From assembly GCA_964631735.1 (NCBI GenBank), contig CAZVZV010000042.1:20321-84320 (forward strand): a stretch of 64,000 bases of DNA, read 5' to 3'. How positions within the stretch are numbered: position 1 is the first letter of the stretch; each line of letters begins with the position of its first letter. Shown here piece after piece: positions 21,532 through 33,481 of this stretch. A model generated the notes under the pieces. The model had not been told where the DNA came from, searched no databases, and worked only from the letters and a program-made list of their open reading frames with translations. The position numbers and the translations under genes are program-made. The stretch is from an uncultured Enterobacteriaceae bacterium. GTDB lineage: Bacteria > Pseudomonadota > Gammaproteobacteria > Burkholderiales > SG8-39.

Positions 21532-22650
21532 ATGCGCAGTCTGATCCCGCTTGTGCTTTCATTCGCCTGCGTTGCTGCGCAGGCGCAGCCCGGCCCGCAG
21601 ATCGCCGCCAGGGCCTGGCTGCTCGCCGACCTCACCAGCGGCCAGGTGCTGGTCGCGGAGAAGGCCGACGAGCGTTTCGCGCCGGCTTCGCTCACCAAGT
21701 TGATGAGCGCCTACGTGGTGTTCGGCGCGCTGCGCGACAGGCAGCTCGCCAGCACCAGCCGCGTCGAGGTGTCGGAGCGCGCCTGGCGTGCGCCCGGCTC
21801 GCGCATGTTCGTGCAGCCCGGCATGGTAGTGGTGGTGGACGAACTGATCCACGGCATGGTGGTGCAATCGGGCAACGACGCGAGCATCGCGCTGGCCGAA
21901 GCGGTGGCCGGCTCGGAGGAGAAGTTCGCGCAGCTGATGAACCGCGAGGCCGCGCGCCTCGGCATGAAGAACACGCATTATGCCAATGCCTCCGGCTACT
22001 CGGCCGTGCAGCACTACAGCACGGCGCGCGATTTGTCTGTCCTTGCCGGCGCGCTGATCCGCGACTTTCCCGAACCCTACGCGCGCTACTACGCGGGCAA
22101 GGAATACCGCTACAACAACATCACGCAGATCAATCGCAATCGCCTGCTGTGGCTCGACCCGAGCGTGGACGGGGTGAAGACCGGCTACACCGAGGCGGCG
22201 GGCTACTGCCTGGTCGCCTCTTCGCGCCGCGGCGGACGGCGGCTGCTCTCGGTGCTGCTCGGCGCGCAGTCGGACTCCGCGCGCGCGCAGGAGTCGCAGA
22301 AGCTGCTCAACTGGGGTTACCAGTTCTTCGACGGCGTGCGCCTGTTCGCCGGTAGCGAAGCGGTCAAGGCGGTGGCGGTGTGGAAGGGCTCCGCCTCCGA
22401 GGTGCAGGCCGGCTTCGCCGAGGGGCTGGTGGTGACGGTACCCAAGGGACAGGCGGGCAAACTCAAGGCGGAACTTCTCACCCATCCACCGGTGGTGGCG
22501 CCGGTGTCGCGGGGCCAGCGCGTGGGCGTGCTGCGAGTGCAGCTGGATGGCAAACCGCTCGGCGAGTACCCGGTGGAAGCGCTGGAGAGCGTTGCCTTGG
22601 CGGGATTCTTCGGCCGCGCGTGGGATACACTGCGATTGTTGTCCAGGTAG
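21532..22650 (+). CDS. D-alanyl-D-alanine carboxypeptidase (PBP5/6 family)
   Basis: 372 aa. Signal peptide, then the SLTK (SxxK), SGN and KTG motifs. The track ORF 20953-22650 extends upstream as a shadow. Confidence 0.9.
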   Translation: MRSLIPLVLSFACVAAQAQPGPQIAARAWLLADLTSGQVLVAEKADERFAPASLTKLMSAYVVFGALRDRQLASTSRVEVSERAWRAPGSRMFVQPGMVVVVDELIHGMVVQSGNDASIALAEAVAGSEEKFAQLMNREAARLGMKNTHYANASGYSAVQHYSTARDLSVLAGALIRDFPEPYARYYAGKEYRYNNITQINRNRLLWLDPSVDGVKTGYTEAAGYCLVASSRRGGRRLLSVLLGAQSDSARAQESQKLLNWGYQFFDGVRLFAGSEAVKAVAVWKGSASEVQAGFAEGLVVTVPKGQAGKLKAELLTHPPVVAPVSRGQRVGVLRVQLDGKPLGEYPVEALESVALAGFFGRAWDTLRLLSR

Positions 22651-24419: not shown

Positions 24420-25353
24420 AGCGGGCGTAAAGGAGAAAGGCCGGGAGAAGACGGCGCGGATTCCCATCAAGATCGTGCCGCGGACGCCGTTGGCCAAACC
24501 GGCGTGGATCCGCGTCAAGGCGGCGAGCGCCACGGGGCGCTTTACCGAGATCAAACAGATCCTGCGCGAGCAGAACCTGCATACGGTGTGCGAAGAGGCG
24601 TCCTGCCCGAACATCGGCGAGTGCTTCGGCAAAGGCACGGCCACCTTCATGATCCTGGGCGACATCTGCACGCGGCGCTGCCCGTTCTGCGATGTGGCGC
24701 ATGGCAGGCCTTTGGCGCCGGATGTAGAAGAGCCTGCGCATCTGGCGGACACCATTGCGAAGTTGAAGCTCAAATACGTGGTCATCACCAGTGTGGATCG
24801 GGACGATTTGAAGGACGGCGGGGCGCAGCACTTCGTGGATTGCATTCGCGCGGTGCGGGAGAGTTCGCCGTCCACGACGATCGAAGTTCTCGTTCCCGAT
24901 TTCCGCGGGCGGATGGAGCGGGCGCTGGAAATCCTTCTCTCGGCGCCGCCCGACGTGATGAACCACAACCTCGAGACCGTGCCGCGGCTGTATCGGCAGG
25001 CGCGGCCGGGCGGGGACTACATCCATTCCCTGAAGCTGCTGCAGGAATTTGGCAAGCAGCTACCCAACATTCCCACCAAGTCAGGCTTGATGGTGGGGCT
25101 GGGGGAGACGGACGGGGAAATCCTCCAGGTGATGCGCGACCTGCGCGCGCACGACGTGGACATGCTCACCATCGGGCAGTATCTCCAGCCCTCGCCGCAC
25201 CATTTGGCGGTGGAGCGGTATGTGCACCCGGATACCTTTGCGATATATGAGCGCGAGGCGAGGGACATGGGTTTCAGGCATGCGGCGGTTGGGGCGATGG
25301 TGCGGAGTTCGTATCACGCCGACCGGCAGGCGCATGAGGCGGGGGTGGGGTAG
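24412..25353 (+). CDS. lipA: Lipoyl synthase
   Basis: 313 aa. [12 protein letters not shown] and radical-SAM CTRRCPFC clusters. Confidence 0.96.
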
Positions 25354-25384
25354 GTTCGTTGCTCTCTGACGTACCTCCGCGCTG

Positions 25385-25828
25385 TTACGGCAACCTGCTC
25401 CGGCCGGACTGATCGGTCGCGTAGTACTCGCCGCTGGCCGGCAGCCGGCTCACGGCGTCGCGGGCCCAGCCCGCCTGCTCAGCCGCCCCGACGCATGCAG
25501 GCGCACCCGTGGCAAACGTGCGAATCTGGACCCCCTCTGCATACACGGAATGAAATCGTTCGACCGCGGCCAGGAGTTGCTTTGTGGACGCATTGCCGCA
25601 GTTGTCGAGCCAGAGCGTACGGATAAGGATCGGCTTCGCCCACGCTTGCAGCGCCGCGAGGTCGGAGAACGGCTTCCCGGCGGCAACGTAGCGGTCGGGA
25701 AAGACTTTCACGTTCAAGGCTTCCGGCGGCACGGAATCCAGGCCGAGTGCAGAAAGCGGAAGAATGAGGGCGAGACTTCCTGCAGCAAGGATCCAGCGAC
25801 TGCGTGCAACAACAGGGTGCGCGTTCAT
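25385..25828 (-). CDS. Hypothetical secreted protein
   Basis: 147 aa with a signal-peptide-like N-terminus (RSRWILAAGSLALILPLSALG). I recognise no family. Confidence 0.55.
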   Translation of the reverse strand: MNAHPVVARSRWILAAGSLALILPLSALGLDSVPPEALNVKVFPDRYVAAGKPFSDLAALQAWAKPILIRTLWLDNCGNASTKQLLAAVERFHSVYAEGVQIRTFATGAPACVGAAEQAGWARDAVSRLPASGEYYATDQSGRSRLP

Positions 25829-28123: not shown

Positions 28124-31100
28124 ATGATCTACCGCGTTGGTGCATGCACCATCGACACCCAGGTGTACGAGGTGCGAAAGGACGGGCACCGTATTGTCGT
28201 AGAGCCCCAGGTGTTCGACCTGCTCGTGATGCTGCTCACGAACAGCCATCGGGTGGTCACGAAGGACGAGATTCTTGCGGCGATCTGGAATGGACGGATC
28301 GTTTCCGAGGCCGCTCTATCCAGCCGGATTGCGGCAGCGCGCAAGGCCATCGGGGATGACGGCAAGTCGCAGTCGCTGATCCGGACGGTTCAACGGCGGG
28401 GGTTCCGGTTCGTCGGTACGTTCTCCAACGAGCCGATCGAAAACAGCGGCCAGACGGCGGCCGGCGATGGTCCAGCCGTAGCGGAGGCGCTGCCAGCCGA
28501 CCTGGCTCCCGGGGCCGAACGGATCGACGGCGAGATCGTTGCGGGCGAGCGCAAACTTGCAACCGTGCTGTGTGCAGACTGCAAGGATTCGCTGGAACGC
28601 ATTGCCGAGCAGGATCCCGAGGAAGGCCTGAAAATCCTCGACGCAGTCCTCCAGCTGATGGCGCAAGCCGTTCGGCGCTACGAGGGAAGCGTTAATCTGG
28701 TGACGGGCGACGGGATCGTCGCGCTGTTCGGGGTGCCGATCGCGCAGGAGGACCATGCCGTTCGGGCCTGCTTCGCGGCGCTTGAGATCCGGGAGGCGGT
28801 AAAGCAATTTGCCCAAACCCTGAATCGCGCGCCGGCCATCCCGATACTCGTGCGCGCAGGATTGAACTCCGGGGAGGTCGTGACCCGCCCGGTCGCGAGC
28901 GACCCGGACGCGGCCTACCGGGCGATGGGCCACGCGAGCCACCTTGCCGCGCGGCTTGCGCAGATCGCAGCACCCGGGACATTGCTGATCAGCGCGGAAA
29001 CCCTGCGACTTGCGGAGGGCCATGTCCACGCGAAGGCGCTGCAGCCCGCCGGCGTGACCGTTGCCCCCTACGAGCTGCTGGGGACCGGGCCAGCGCAGAC
29101 GCGCTTCCAGGCGCTGGCAGCTCGGGGGCTCACGGATTTCGTCGGTCGCGGTGCCGAGCTGGAGCAACTCGAGCGCATGCAAGGCAGAGCCCGGCAGGGG
29201 CATGGCCAGGTGGTCACTGTCATCGGCGAGGCGGGTCTGGGCAAATCGCGCCTTCTTCACGAATTTCTCCATCCGCAAACCGCATCGGACTGGTTGGTGC
29301 TCGAGACGGCGTCGCTTTCCTATCGCAAATCCACCAACTACCAGCCGATGATCAGGCTGCTGAAGAGCTACTTCAGAATCGAAATCAGCGACGACGTCCG
29401 CGCGCTGCGCAACAAGGTCGCCGATCGGCTGCTGGAGCTCGATCCGGTGCATATACCCGACCTCCCCGCGTTTCTCGCGCTGCTCGATGTCCCCGTCGAG
29501 GACCCATCTTGGCAAAGCCTCGACGCTTCGCAGCGTCGTCAGCGCACGCTCGAGGCACTCAAGCGCTTGATCCTGCGCGAGTCCCAGCGCCAGCCCGTGA
29601 TCCTGGTCGTCGAGGACCTCCACTGGATCGACGGCGAAACACAGGCGTTTCTGGAGACGCTGGTCGACAGTCTGGCTTCGGCGCCGCTCTTGCTGCTTCT
29701 GACTTATCGTCCGGAATACGAGCACCGCTGGGGCGGCAAGAGCTACTACACACAGCTGCGCCTCGACGTCCTGTCGCCGGAGATGACCAAAGAGTTCGTG
29801 CGCAACCTGGTGGGCGACGACGCGAGCCTTACCGGCCTGAAGGACCTGTTGCCGAAGGACGGGAATCCATTCTTTCTCGAGGAGAGCATCCGCACGCTCG
29901 TCGAGACGAACCTGCTGGAAGGCAGTCGGGGGGCCTACCGCCTGGTCCGGCCGCTGCAGTCGCTGCAGATCCCGCCCACCGTCCAGGCCGCCTTGTCGGC
30001 GCGCATCGATCGCCTGGCTGCGGCCGACAAGCGGCTTCTGCAGGCGGCGTCGGTCGTCGGCTCGAACGTACCACATGCGATCCTGCGCAGCATCGCCGGG
30101 CTGGAGGATGACCACCTTCGTCGCGGTCTCGCGAAGCTGCAGGAATCCGAATTCCTGTATCAGGCCCGCCTCTTTCCCGACCAGTCGTACACCTTCAACC
30201 ACGCTCTCACGCACGACGTCGCCTACGGAAGTCTTCTCGGCGAGCAGCGCAGAGTACTGCACCGGCAAATCGTCGACGCGATCGAACGGCTCTATCCTGA
30301 TCGGTTGGCCGAGCACGTCGAGCGGCTGGCCCACCATGCGTCGCGGGGCGAAGTCTGGGATAAGTCGGTAACCTATTTGCGGCAGGCGGGGGCGAAGGCC
30401 TTCACCCGCTCGGCCAACCGCGAGGCAGCCACGTACTTCGAGCAGGCGCTGACGGCGCTGGCCCAGCTTCCCGCAACCGCGGAGACGCTGGAGCCTGGCG
30501 TCGACGTTCGTCTCGCGCTGCGCAATGCGCTCTGGCCCCTCGGACGCTTCGAGACCGGCTTCGGACATCTACAGGATGCCGAACGCCTGGCCGCGGAGCT
30601 CGGCGATCAACGCCGGCTGGGATGGATTGCGGCGTACATGAGCGAGCACACGCGCCAGACTGGACTGGCGACGGACGCCCCGGCATTCGCAGAGCGCGCC
30701 CTGGGGATCGCCGAGGGACTCGGGGATCTGCCGCTGCGCGTGGCGGCGAACTACTACCTCGGCACGGCCAACTTCGTGGCGGGCAACTACCGGCAGACCG
30801 ACGAGTTCTTCTCGACAATCCTCGAACTGCTCGCGGGCGAGAAGTTTCGCGACCGCTGCGGGCTGGCGGGGTTTCCAGCCGTGATGTCCCGCATGTTCTG
30901 GCCGCTGGCGCTTGCCGAGCGCGGCGAGTTTCAGCGCGCGCTGGCCGAGGCGCAGGAGGGCGTACGGCTTGCCGAGGCGCTCGATCACCCATACAGCCTG
31001 ATCTGCGCGATGCGCGCCGTGGGCCGCGCCCACGGCGCCCGGGGAGATTTTGGTCTCGCGATCCCCATCGCGGAGCGGAGCCTCGCGCTGTCGCGTGACA

Positions 31101-31642
31101 GGAACCTTCCGCAGCTCTTTCCGGAAGTGGCGGATCTGCTGGGCTATCTTTACGCGCAATCGGGACGCATCGCGGAGGGTCAGAAGCTGCTCGAAGAGTC
31201 TCTGGCAGCGCTGGAATCCATGGCGATGTTCCAGTGGCGCTCGTCCGTGCTCGTCCATCTCGGTGAGACTTGCCTGCTGGCGAGCCGGTCGGAGCAGGCC
31301 TTCGCGCTAGCGGAACGGGCTCTGACGCTGTCGCGGGAACGCGGTCACCGTGGCTACGAGGCCTGGACCCTTCGCCTACTGGGCGAGATTGATTCGCATC
31401 ATGACCGCTCCGACGTGGCGACGGCCGAAGCGCACTACCTCGCTGCAGCGGCCCTTGCATCTGAGCTCGGCATGCACCCGCTCGCGGCACACTGCCACGT
31501 CGGGCTTGGCAAGCTGTATCGTCAAGCGGGCGACCCCGAGAAAGCGAAAGAGCACCTGGCCATCGCAACGGGAAGCTATCGCCAATTGGGCATGCACTTC
31601 TGGCTGCAAAAGACGAGTGCGGAGATGGGGTCGCTCGAGTAA
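28124..31642 (+). CDS. Multidomain regulator: OmpR/CadC-type winged helix, class III cyclase-like domain, P-loop NTPase (STAND/AAA-like), and TPR array
   Basis: 1172 aa. Residues 1-100 form the wHTH (LIRTVQRRGFRF). Residues about 143-320 are cyclase-like (ATVLCAD, VTGDGIVALFG, RAGLNSGEVV). Walker A is GEAGLGKS (aa 368-375) and Walker B is ILVVEDLHW (aa 492-500). The C-terminal ~500 aa are TPR-like repeats. Confidence 0.85.
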   Translation: MIYRVGACTIDTQVYEVRKDGHRIVVEPQVFDLLVMLLTNSHRVVTKDEILAAIWNGRIVSEAALSSRIAAARKAIGDDGKSQSLIRTVQRRGFRFVGTFSNEPIENSGQTAAGDGPAVAEALPADLAPGAERIDGEIVAGERKLATVLCADCKDSLERIAEQDPEEGLKILDAVLQLMAQAVRRYEGSVNLVTGDGIVALFGVPIAQEDHAVRACFAALEIREAVKQFAQTLNRAPAIPILVRAGLNSGEVVTRPVASDPDAAYRAMGHASHLAARLAQIAAPGTLLISAETLRLAEGHVHAKALQPAGVTVAPYELLGTGPAQTRFQALAARGLTDFVGRGAELEQLERMQGRARQGHGQVVTVIGEAGLGKSRLLHEFLHPQTASDWLVLETASLSYRKSTNYQPMIRLLKSYFRIEISDDVRALRNKVADRLLELDPVHIPDLPAFLALLDVPVEDPSWQSLDASQRRQRTLEALKRLILRESQRQPVILVVEDLHWIDGETQAFLETLVDSLASAPLLLLLTYRPEYEHRWGGKSYYTQLRLDVLSPEMTKEFVRNLVGDDASLTGLKDLLPKDGNPFFLEESIRTLVETNLLEGSRGAYRLVRPLQSLQIPPTVQAALSARIDRLAAADKRLLQAASVVGSNVPHAILRSIAGLEDDHLRRGLAKLQESEFLYQARLFPDQSYTFNHALTHDVAYGSLLGEQRRVLHRQIVDAIERLYPDRLAEHVERLAHHASRGEVWDKSVTYLRQAGAKAFTRSANREAATYFEQALTALAQLPATAETLEPGVDVRLALRNALWPLGRFETGFGHLQDAERLAAELGDQRRLGWIAAYMSEHTRQTGLATDAPAFAERALGIAEGLGDLPLRVAANYYLGTANFVAGNYRQTDEFFSTILELLAGEKFRDRCGLAGFPAVMSRMFWPLALAERGEFQRALAEAQEGVRLAEALDHPYSLICAMRAVGRAHGARGDFGLAIPIAERSLALSRDRNLPQLFPEVADLLGYLYAQSGRIAEGQKLLEESLAALESMAMFQWRSSVLVHLGETCLLASRSEQAFALAERALTLSRERGHRGYEAWTLRLLGEIDSHHDRSDVATAEAHYLAAAALASELGMHPLAAHCHVGLGKLYRQAGDPEKAKEHLAIATGSYRQLGMHFWLQKTSAEMGSLE

Positions 31643-31713
31643 TACAGGCACCGTATCGTTGGTTATTTCAACCCCGCTGGGCAACCCGAAAATTAGCTGC
31701 CGAATTCAGCGTC

Positions 31714-32298
31714 ATGGAATTAGCTCGACAGATTGCCTCAATCGGTCTTGCCATTCCGGGCGCATTGATCGCTCTGTTCAACGCATGGGTAATTGTCAAC
31801 CAGCTGAACGGCAGGCACTCTCCTTCCGTATTTCCGTTTGTTGGCGGATTGATGTTATTTGGCGCCGGGTTGATGTATCCCGATTCCAACAGTTGGAAAT
31901 TGGCATTGCTGGGGCTTGTCGTTGACTATGGATGCCTGCCGTATGCCGTCCTCGCATCCATTTCTGTCTATCTGGATAGCAGGAAGTATTCAGCGAAAAA
32001 CAGATTGCTTGCTCTGGCCATTGATACGCCAAACCTGACTGGTGTCGTCCTCTTGTTCCTTGGGAATAATGCGATCCTGGAATACGCCATGAAGGATGGC
32101 AGGCAATCCGGTTCAATCGTCATGACGTCTAGACATGACGCCGGAATGCGGGAGATAGAAATCGCGAACAATGATGTATTGGTTCGATTCGCGAGACTGG
32201 AGGGGGGATGGGCGGTACAAGAGGAGCGTGGATGGAAGGACGGCAGGATGACGTTGCTCAACGCATCGGTGCAAGAAAGGCTGCAACAGGGGCAATGA
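31714..32298 (+). CDS. Hypothetical membrane protein (low-GC ORFan)
   Basis: 194 aa. About three predicted TM helices in the N-terminal 90 aa plus a ~100-aa soluble tail. Hand-counted lines give 45-52% GC against about 70% in the flanks. The stop overlaps the next ATG. Confidence 0.6.
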   Translation: MELARQIASIGLAIPGALIALFNAWVIVNQLNGRHSPSVFPFVGGLMLFGAGLMYPDSNSWKLALLGLVVDYGCLPYAVLASISVYLDSRKYSAKNRLLALAIDTPNLTGVVLLFLGNNAILEYAMKDGRQSGSIVMTSRHDAGMREIEIANNDVLVRFARLEGGWAVQEERGWKDGRMTLLNASVQERLQQGQ

Positions 32299-32783
32299 AC
32301 ATGGAAAAACCATTTCCCATCGAAGGCGGCTGTACCTGCCGCTCGGTGCGCTACCGAATGACGAGCAAACCCATGTTCGTCCATTGCTGCCACTGCACCT
32401 GGTGCCAGCGCGAGACCGGGACTGCGTTCGCGCTCAACGCCATGATCGAAGCCGGCCGCGTCGAGCTGCTGCAGGGCGAAGTGGAAGTGGTCAATACGCC
32501 CTCCAACAGCGGCAAGGGGCAGAAGATCACCCGCTGCCCCAGGTGCCGCATCGCACTCTGGAGCAACTACGCAGGGGCGGGGGACGCAGTGCGTTTCGTG
32601 CGCATCGGGACTCTCGACGAGCCTGGGCGGTTTCCGCCAGACATGCATATCTTCACGTCAACGAAGCAACCCTGGGTGGTGCTGCCGGCGGGTACGCCTG
32701 CGGTGCCGGAGTACTACAAGGCCTCCGAGCATTGGCCGAAGGAAAGCCTCGAACGCCGCGCGGCGTTGAAGGCTGGCAGATAA
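32295..32783 (+). CDS. GFA-family protein (glutathione-dependent formaldehyde-activating enzyme fold)
   Basis: 162 aa. GGCTCRSVRY, CHCTWCQRETG and CPRCR cysteine motifs. Confidence 0.85.
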   Translation: MNMEKPFPIEGGCTCRSVRYRMTSKPMFVHCCHCTWCQRETGTAFALNAMIEAGRVELLQGEVEVVNTPSNSGKGQKITRCPRCRIALWSNYAGAGDAVRFVRIGTLDEPGRFPPDMHIFTSTKQPWVVLPAGTPAVPEYYKASEHWPKESLERRAALKAGR

Positions 32784-32791
32784 TCAGGCCG

Positions 32792-33481
32792 GTGAGAGTC
32801 GCTATTGTCGCCGCGTCCGCGGCTGTTGTGATGGCCTGGGCCAACCCTGCGTCGGCCCAGCTCGAGAACATCACCAATAGAGAGGCGGTCTCGGCTCTGA
32901 GGACCGCCTTGGAAAAGGGTTCTCGCGCGGCGGTGGACCAGTTGGGGAAGGAGAATGGATTTTTCGGCGACACCCGGGTGAAGATTCCCTTGCCGCAGTC
33001 GCTGCAGCGTGCGGAGCGCACCATGCGGCGCTTGGGGCTGGGCAAGTACTCCGATGAGCTGGTTCTCACCATGAACCGTGCGGCGGAGGCCGCGGTGCCG
33101 GAGGCGAAGCAGCTGTTCGTGGACTCGGTGAAGAAGATGTCGGTGCAGGACGCGAAGGGGATCTTGACGGGCGGGGAGACCTCGGGGACGGAGTACTTCA
33201 AGCGCACCACGACGGATCAACTGCGCAAGAGGTTTCTGCCCATGGTGAAGAAATCTACGGAGAAGGTGGGCCTTGCGCAGAAGTACAACCAATACGCAGA
33301 GCAGGGAGTGGCGCTCGGGCTGGTGAAGCAGGAGCAGGCCAACCTCGACGACTATGTGACGCAGAAGGCCCTGGACGGCCTTTACTTCATGGTGGCGGAG
33401 GAAGAGAAGAAGATCCGCAAAGACCCGGTGGGCACCGCGTCCAGCATCCTCAAAAAGGTCTTTGGTGAATTGAGAAAATAG
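32792..33481 (+). CDS. DUF4197-like secreted protein
   Basis: 229 aa. GTG start, signal peptide ending ASAQ, and GFFGDTRVKIPLP typical of DUF4197. Confidence 0.7.
   Translation: MRVAIVAASAAVVMAWANPASAQLENITNREAVSALRTALEKGSRAAVDQLGKENGFFGDTRVKIPLPQSLQRAERTMRRLGLGKYSDELVLTMNRAAEAAVPEAKQLFVDSVKKMSVQDAKGILTGGETSGTEYFKRTTTDQLRKRFLPMVKKSTEKVGLAQKYNQYAEQGVALGLVKQEQANLDDYVTQKALDGLYFMVAEEEKKIRKDPVGTASSILKKVFGELRK

Follow-up and report, generated by a model that had tools for sequence, protein, structure and literature searches.

Among the small membrane proteins described to date, the closest in overall plan to the one considered here belong to the S-2TMβ family, which includes Cap15 of CBASS and OptE of Panoptes and joins two membrane helices to a nucleotide-binding β barrel (PMC12657218, PMC10419184). 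The current study concerns ORF194, a 194-codon open reading frame (ORF) found at 31714..32298 on the forward strand, from an ATG start to a TGA stop, of a 64-kb window (the whole stretch of DNA analyzed, 64,000 nucleotides of contig CAZVZV010000042.1 from an uncultured bacterium). Like Cap15 and OptE, its product is roughly 200 aa long, with N-terminal membrane helices followed by a compact C-terminal domain that is predicted to be all-β and presumably cytoplasmic, and, in an arrangement resembling that of Cap15-type loci, a gene containing a cyclase-like domain lies directly upstream, in this case encoding a regulator of the STAND (signal transduction ATPases with numerous domains) type. A preliminary description of the sequence had raised a possible link to nucleotide-signaling defense systems, while cautioning that the link was speculative, and that caution was justified by the outcome of our analyses. 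ORF194 rather appears to be an autonomous gene of foreign origin from a rare, undescribed family of membrane proteins, encoding a membrane module with a putative polar site to which a β domain has been added; taken together, we assign this interpretation a probability of about 0.5. We consider it likely, and with some assurance, that the gene is real, horizontally mobile, autonomous and inserted as a bare cassette, while the mechanism we propose for its product, a buried polar site within an oligomer combined with a regulatory β domain, is put forward as a tentative and still rather doubtful model.

The foreign origin of ORF194 is evident from a combination of a unique compositional dip, GC-poor close homologues, low synonymous divergence without synteny, and DNA homology that is limited to the coding sequence. 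Firstly, the GC content of ORF194 is 51.6% compared to a window mean of 67.0% (standard deviation 3.4% in 585-nt windows). Only 0.3% of 585-nt windows are as GC-poor, every one of which overlaps ORF194, and this is the only stretch in the 64 kb that falls below 56%. Similarly, GC at third codon positions (GC3) is 59%, versus 71–89% in seven neighboring genes. It had been proposed that a drop in GC coincides exactly with a single 194-aa ORF, and both our scan of the 64 kb and the recomputed values for individual 60-nt lines (73.3% at 30001; 51.7%, 48.3%, 45.0% and 51.7% at 31741, 31801, 31981 and 32101, respectively) agree with this. The feature had been drawn from 31560, which is indeed where GC begins to fall, but this position still belongs to the 3' end of the STAND gene. 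Secondly, close homologues of ORF194 are 10–15 GC points below their hosts (46 vs 56%, 51 vs 66% and 55 vs 66%); distant homologues have host-like values. Thirdly, the copy at a locus termed L002, which is 72% identical, differs from that of the window by a synonymous divergence (dS) of 0.48, and the flanks of the two loci share no genes. Lastly, the window, L002 and a third locus (L009) resemble one another at the DNA level over a leader of ~18 nt and the coding sequence, the similarity ending at the stop codon. As judged from these comparisons, ORF194 was evidently acquired by the common ancestor of the window and its syntenic relative L001 as a bare cassette, consisting of the coding sequence and the ~18-nt leader, which landed between the STAND gene and a downstream gene of the GFA family. 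Events in which a compositionally foreign gene arrives bare between two native ones are common, and ORF194 is a well-delimited case of modest value.

The insertion itself has left little else to describe. No convincing direct or inverted repeats, tRNA, Rfam family or mobility genes were found flanking ORF194. One 11-nt repeat (GGCTGCAAAAG/GGCTGCAACAG, at 31602 and 32279) was considered as an insertion scar, and is most likely due to chance. Similarly, no empty site in which the STAND gene is directly followed by the GFA gene was found, the closest STAND relatives in GTDB being at most 58% identical and not syntenic. With regard to age, ORF194 and its L001 counterpart differ by a dS of 0.33, which is similar to the values for polA (0.26) and a DUF4197 gene (0.32) and therefore places ORF194 in the common ancestor of the window and L001. 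The preliminary description had read the composition of ORF194 as a recent acquisition. Horizontal transfer is well supported by the GC content, the unrelated neighborhoods and the dS of 0.48 relative to L002, whereas the gene predates the L001 split and is recent only in relation to the time required for its composition to drift toward that of the host.

The comparison with L001 also exposed some irregularities of the window. Positions 29667–31800 and 32667–32866 are 99.5–100% identical to L001, compared to 82–95% in the surrounding 20 kb, and the first of these stretches extends from the STAND gene, of which it takes in the 3' half, across the spacer and over the initial ~90 nt of ORF194. 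It is due to this stretch that the dS of the STAND gene is only 0.04, whereas its flanks range from 0.26 to 0.33. The near-identical stretches indicate either recent recombination between lineages or a chimeric metagenome assembly. Elsewhere, positions 25314–25469, located between lipA and a LysR-family gene, and 21714–22000, at the left edge of the L001 comparison, are indel-rich or unalignable.

ORF194 is a genuine protein-coding gene under purifying selection, since family members agree in length and sequence and its ratio of nonsynonymous to synonymous divergence (dN/dS) is well below 1. A word-indexed search over 5.8 billion proteins identified 19 close clusters (54–98% identity, 194–202 aa), all of which are derived from metagenomes or read assemblies, and an exhaustive HMMER scan over 1.84 billion representatives, one per 50%-identity cluster, identified 41 clusters at E ≤ 1e-3. 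Nearly all of the related clusters come from metagenomes or metagenome-assembled genomes (MAGs), including a few MAG proteins from Cloacimonetes, Burkholderiales and Halofilum, and every named family member is labeled "hypothetical protein". One match from the representative search, a repeat protein of 1013 aa (P0047), was discarded as spurious and due to low complexity. For the close subfamily, no relative was found in GTDB species genomes, IMG/VR, plasmids or phages, and JGI metagenome contigs contributed four further loci only, all of one known type. The term ORFan, which had been applied to the gene, is thus appropriate insofar as no described family was matched, but not in the sense of a gene lacking relatives. 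Using the Nei-Gojobori method and six homologous loci, dN/dS was found to be 0.20–0.39 (0.26 relative to L001), with similar values over codons 1–46, 1–91 and 92–194.

Two features might lead one to suppose that ORF194 is not a gene but an AT-rich spacer or decayed remnant with a chance open frame: the ATG at 31714 is not preceded by a Shine-Dalgarno sequence, and an NCBI-derived record calls a different product of 148 aa beginning at Met47. This is scarcely credible when considering that more than 40 clusters, with identities as low as 20%, are conserved over the full length, that dN/dS is low in every segment and that the structure predictions are very confident; moreover, at 12 other loci the homologues likewise have no Shine-Dalgarno sequence ahead of this conserved start. 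The 148-aa call (P0069, residues 47–194) initiates at an internal ATG (31852..31854, forward strand), which is preceded by a weak GGCGGA, and it removes the first membrane helix together with the invariant Asn23. Across the family, position 47 is occupied by L, M, F, A, S or I. Because residues 1–46 are conserved and constrained and Met47 is not conserved, the short call is most likely a truncated annotation and the long form correct, which moves the start of the gene from 31852 to 31714.

The predicted architecture of the protein is simple. Hydropathy across the family reveals three N-terminal hydrophobic segments, and an AlphaFold2 model of the full-length protein, built from a 44-sequence alignment, has a mean predicted local distance difference test score (pLDDT) of 87 with helices at residues 2–31, 43–54, 61–70 and 75–91, followed by eight consecutive β strands within residues 97–188. 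The membrane module (residues 1–91; 31714..31986, forward strand) would accordingly consist of three helices, the third being broken at D71-Y-G-C74 (61–70/75–91), and the C-terminal domain (residues 92–194; 31987..32295, forward strand) of eight antiparallel strands. Both lines of evidence agree with the earlier expectation of about three transmembrane helices and a soluble tail of ~100 aa. When modeled alone, the β domain reaches a pLDDT of 93.7 and a predicted template modeling score of 0.84, with the eight strands joined by short hairpins within ~95 residues. Mean counts of lysine plus arginine are 0 in the N-terminal tail, 1.8 in loop 1, 1.05 in loop 2 and 4.07 after helix 3, which by the positive-inside rule suggests that the N-terminus is outside and the C-terminus inside, the β domain thus being cytoplasmic.

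Conservation is distributed very unevenly over these two parts. Down to ~20% identity, the residues N23, S38, P41, G44, G45, P56, D71, G73, C74 and Y77 are invariant or nearly so, and all ten belong to the membrane part, versus a sole near-invariant residue, S134, in the β domain. Furthermore, the representative search recovered complete proteins of ~90–100 aa that correspond to the membrane module alone, share its motifs and end in a short basic tail, whereas none of its matches had the β domain without the membrane module. Among the module-only proteins, P41, G45 and D71 remain invariant and C74 varies. P0045, P0046, P0048, P0052, P0053, P0049 and P0050 are complete proteins of this kind (77–104 aa), and with their N, PSxxPxxGG and DxG(C)xP motifs and basic tails they make up an unnamed small-membrane-protein family of their own; scans of these stand-alone proteins against Pfam, NCBIfam, PADLOC and PHROGs returned nothing credible.

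The same is true of the family as a whole. Nothing credible was found in Pfam, NCBIfam, PADLOC or PHROGs for the window protein or its relatives (44 family members), PDB sequence profiles matched neither the whole protein nor the β domain, and Foldseek searches against PDB and BFVD gave no match at E ≤ 0.001. For the β domain alone, the best Foldseek match in PDB had an E of 0.097, with query-normalized template modeling (TM) scores of at most 0.40. No domain binding cyclic nucleotide monophosphates (cNMP), nor any other Pfam domain, was detected in ORF194. The preliminary description had likewise been unable to assign the protein to a family or to recognize a cyclic-nucleotide-binding motif, and on both counts it was correct. 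From these comparisons, the ORF194 family appears to be rare and undescribed. What is new is the protein family as such; there is no sign of an unusual mechanism, and accessory genes of foreign origin are common.

Based upon the model and the pattern of conservation, several inferences can be made regarding how such a protein might function. Buried acidic or polar groups at points where helices are broken typically mark an ion or polar-solute site. In ORF194, the short and broken helices would bring together the invariant Asn of helix 1, the Ser-x-x-Pro-x-x-Gly-Gly at the entry of helix 2 and the Asp-x-Gly-(Cys)-x-Pro kink of helix 3, so as to form a predicted site for the binding or conduction of an ion or small polar solute. 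A protein of three helices would need to oligomerize in order to use such a site. Given that proteins of ~90 aa are made up of the membrane module alone, this module would be the functional core, and the presumably cytoplasmic β domain of ~100 residues would be an added ligand-binding or regulatory module. ORF194 would not be a partner of the STAND regulator. Several considerations weigh against this interpretation. The mechanism is derived from the predicted structure and the conservation pattern, and no transporter, channel or enzyme family was matched by the 44 members in Pfam, NCBIfam or PDB profiles. The conserved Gly, Pro and Asp motifs could equally serve helix packing or the binding of a partner. 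In addition, the immunity- and antitoxin-type neighbors found in one lineage fit a role in conflict better, and the tight packing behind a cyclase-like regulator in the window resembles a Cap15-type arrangement; a lineage-specific functional capture is conceivable. Regardless, a compact unnamed family with a confident predicted structure, an intramembrane Asn/Asp/Pro/Gly signature and a modular history should be tractable for the assignment of function.

The autonomy of the gene is most apparent from its surroundings. Homologues occur in approximately ten different neighborhoods, with no partner recurring across lineages. The arrangement of STAND, ORF194 and GFA genes is found in the window and L001 only. 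In the other neighborhoods, the homologue lies between an ADP-ribosylglycohydrolase gene and genes for DUF4926 and Macro proteins; follows a variable enzyme gene and is convergent with MFS and cpYpsA genes; is placed between a gene for a 158-aa protein and GNAT and RidA genes; follows a hemerythrin gene and precedes either PEMT/ICMT or genes for a 144-aa protein and TfoX_N; or is associated with DUF6500/BCCT, NmrA, a tricorn protease or acyltransferase/His_Phos_1. A search of 80 STAND-family loci from GTDB genomes (~0.9 Mb) yielded no ORF194 relative, and it is the combination of unrelated neighborhoods with these STAND loci that argues for autonomy. In one distant clade (L013–L017; 20–25% identical, including one Burkholderiales MAG), the homologue has host-like GC and is usually located just after a hemerythrin-domain gene, in a conserved region encoding a HAD hydrolase, a 4HBT thioesterase, HpcH/HpaI, DUF2069, an FMN reductase and pyrF. 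Judging from this synteny, the homologue of that clade seems to behave as a stable chromosomal gene.

One of these neighborhoods raises the possibility that ORF194 is an orphan immunity-type membrane protein, which neutralizes a membrane-acting or other toxin of competitors and is kept without a toxin of its own. Many immunity genes of polymorphic toxins and bacteriocins are retained as orphans, and ADP-ribosylglycohydrolase and Macro domains reverse the ADP-ribosylation made by toxins. At L002:2687-5050, and likewise at L003–L007 and L099–L102, the ADP-ribosylglycohydrolase gene, the 72%-identical homologue, DUF4926 and Macro form a tight same-strand cluster in which the homologue starts 10 nt after the first gene, and genes for DUF433, Unstab_antitox, a Phd-type antitoxin and DUF2204/DUF6036 are found nearby. 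The whole looks like a small island of ADP-ribosylation-reversing and immunity- or antitoxin-type genes, and according to a recent proposal, DUF4926 serves as immunity protein to BECR-Tox3 RNases (bioRxiv 10.64898/2026.08.28.747851). Like orphan immunity genes, moreover, ORF194 is small, horizontally mobile, patchily distributed and prone to switching neighbors, and its dN/dS, at 0.26–0.43, is somewhat above that of most neighboring genes. Conversely, no toxin gene adjoins the homologue in any of the approximately ten neighborhoods, no Pfam immunity family is matched, and the immunity-type context is restricted to one lineage. The distant clade (P0061–P0063), with its host-like GC and stable synteny near pyrF/HpcH, has the appearance of a physiological gene, and intramembrane Asn, Asp, Pro and Gly residues that remain invariant at 20–25% identity would be unusual for fast-evolving immunity proteins. 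We therefore regard an immunity function as unlikely, although it merits some consideration.

In the window, ORF194 is tightly packed between its two neighbors. The stop codon of the STAND gene (31642) and the ORF194 start are separated by a spacer of 71 nt (31643..31713, forward strand), the last ~18 nt of which are homologous to the leaders in other hosts, and at the other end the ORF194 stop overlaps the GFA start as ATGA (32295..32298, forward strand; TGA at 32296–32298 and an in-frame GFA ATG at 32295). Both junctions had been reported previously and are unchanged upon remeasurement. No Shine-Dalgarno, promoter-like or terminator-like site was found in the spacer, which is identical in L001, and in L001 the overlapping ATG is the sole available GFA start. 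The GFA-family gene (32295..32783, forward strand; Pfam PF04828, E 1e-30) has a GC3 of 80%, consistent with a native composition, and it is absent from every other neighborhood of the ORF194 family, indicating that it is not a conserved partner. Its start codon is assembled from the last base of the final ORF194 sense codon and the first two bases of the stop (CAA TGA), and this native gene thus starts on bases supplied by the cassette (window 32295–32303 versus L001:10582-10590). A second ATG, at 32301, is present in the window and absent from L001. From the overlap, the GFA gene is apparently translationally coupled to ORF194. Given the lack of terminator- or promoter-like sites in the spacer and the retention of the ATGA overlap in L001, read-through from the STAND gene probably extends into ORF194, which would in turn be coupled to the GFA gene, and both would be owed only to the landing place of the cassette.

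The STAND-type regulator itself (28124..31642, forward strand; 1172 aa) contains an OmpR-type winged helix (Trans_reg_C, residues 23–96), a class III cyclase-like domain (Guanylate_cyc, 146–298), AAA_16 (339–524, E 1e-24) and TPR repeats (TPR_12/TPR_MalT, 1001–1164), all as defined by Pfam. It is the AAA_16/NACHT-like P-loop NTPase followed by TPR repeats, together with the DNA-binding domain, that places it in the STAND class; a match to TIGR03903 is partial and below the cut-off. Its cyclase-like domain (28511–29083) aligns to Cya2 (PDB 2W01, E 6e-22) and retains both metal-binding Asp residues, but carries His where the transition-state Asn would be expected and Leu at the position of the base-specifying Lys/Glu, from which any cyclase activity would be doubtful or atypical. 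The protein also gives weak matches to PycC models (E 7e-11 to 0.01), which appear to reflect general class III cyclase homology. A member of its 90%-identity cluster (P0072) is only 393 aa long and ends just past the Walker A region, and is therefore a truncated or frameshifted STAND allele in a relative; this record is sourced from NCBI, JGI, Logan and ENA and lies on a 54-kb contig. The possibility that the upstream gene and the homologue at L009 form a single fused gene was also considered, and it was rejected on the grounds of their different frames.

It is this regulator that made a defense interpretation so tempting. In such a scheme, the STAND protein would sense an invader and make a nucleotide signal, and ORF194 would be the effector that kills or arrests the cell in the manner of Cap15 or OptE. 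The general plan of the protein, the conserved metal-binding residues and PycC-model matches of the upstream domain, and the 71-nt distance with no intervening terminator-like site all agree with it, and two other contexts contain nucleotide-related genes (ADP-ribosylglycohydrolase/Macro and cpYpsA). The check suggested in the preliminary description, namely whether homologues neighbor cyclase or STAND genes, gave a divided answer: the window and L001 have this adjacency, whereas homologues in the other neighborhoods examined do not, and the 80 STAND loci lack the gene altogether. The locus is set among housekeeping genes (lipA, lipB and polA) rather than in a defense island, the cyclase-like domain has lost the two catalytic positions mentioned above, and the divergence from L001 is unequal for the supposed partners (dS of 0.04 for STAND and 0.33 for ORF194). 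Together with the lack of any PADLOC or Cap15-type match, this leaves the proposed pairing of a sensor with a membrane effector unsupported, and we consider it improbable. A broader variant would have the family represent a new group of ligand-gated effectors that arose independently of Cap15 and OptE. Here, a nucleotide-derived signal would be bound by the β domain, which would thereby govern the oligomerization of a three-helix pore, the signal would depend upon the host, being either a product of the STAND cyclase or an ADP-ribose derivative where ADP-ribosylglycohydrolase/Macro or cpYpsA genes are neighbors, and the pore in its ancestral, ungated form would be represented by the 90-aa relatives. 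To us, this variant seems equally improbable. An autonomous foreign gene remains the interpretation we prefer, and it is with this in mind that ORF194 can be set beside the systems it resembles.

When compared with other described protein groups, ORF194 shares a few features with each. Class I holins have three helices, an N-out/C-in topology and a charged C-terminal tail. The ~90-aa relatives of ORF194 would fit this description, with three hydrophobic helices, a presumed N-out/C-in orientation and a basic tail, although this is a generic feature, and the low GC and horizontal mobility of the gene could also suit a prophage-derived holin-like or superinfection-exclusion protein. Unlike holins, the family has a strongly conserved sequence motif, which would be unusual for them, and an extra folded β domain of 100 residues. 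There is likewise no trace of phage: relatives are absent from IMG/VR contigs and, by tblastn, from 50,697 phage records and 72,556 plasmids, no PHROG family is matched at E below 0.007, and no endolysin, integrase or other phage gene is present in any neighborhood, nor are there flanking repeats or a tRNA. The phage-derived origin that had been entertained for ORF194 is thus very improbable. Another resemblance would be to the up-and-down β barrels of the lipocalin/calycin type, whose eight consecutive antiparallel strands recall those predicted here, lipocalins being the most frequent, albeit non-significant, Foldseek matches in PDB. With E values of 0.02–0.4, TM scores mostly of 0.2–0.3 (at most 0.40 for the domain model) and root-mean-square deviations of 8–13 Å, there is no convincing superposition, and the modeled domain would have at most an up-and-down topology in common with them. 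Unlike lipocalins, ORF194 has no corresponding sequence signature, and its domain is much smaller, membrane-tethered and presumably cytoplasmic.

The comparisons with nucleotide-signaling systems lead to a similar conclusion. Like PycTM of Pycsar, ORF194 encodes a membrane protein and directly follows a gene whose product contains a domain of the class III cyclase type, for which the best PycC-model match is the E of 7e-11 given above. Unlike PycTM, it lacks a cyclic-nucleotide-binding domain, and the PADLOC effector models are unmatched by the window protein and 43 relatives. The upstream gene also differs from Pycsar in encoding a large winged helix-cyclase-AAA_16-TPR regulator rather than a stand-alone PycC, and the canonical Asn and Lys/Glu are missing from its cyclase domain. 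As for Cap15 and OptE, whose family is characterized by cyclic-dinucleotide binding and by membrane disruption under the control of the oligomeric state, a relationship was rejected at the sequence level with OptE serving as the positive control: PF18153 (Cap15_CD_rec), which stands for the C-terminal cyclic-dinucleotide receptor β barrel, is matched by 0 of 44 family members, whereas the OptE control sequence, taken from the supplement of the S-2TMβ paper, matches at 2e-19. Alignment to OptE with hhalign has a probability of 0.2%, there is no PADLOC match, and the 50 best Foldseek matches do not include the Cap15 structure 7N35. Nor does the family have a recurrent nucleotide-synthase neighbor (CD-NTase or mCpol). 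ORF194 also differs from Cap15 and OptE in the protein itself, which by both AlphaFold and hydropathy has three helical segments rather than two, and which concentrates its conservation in the membrane part rather than in the β domain.

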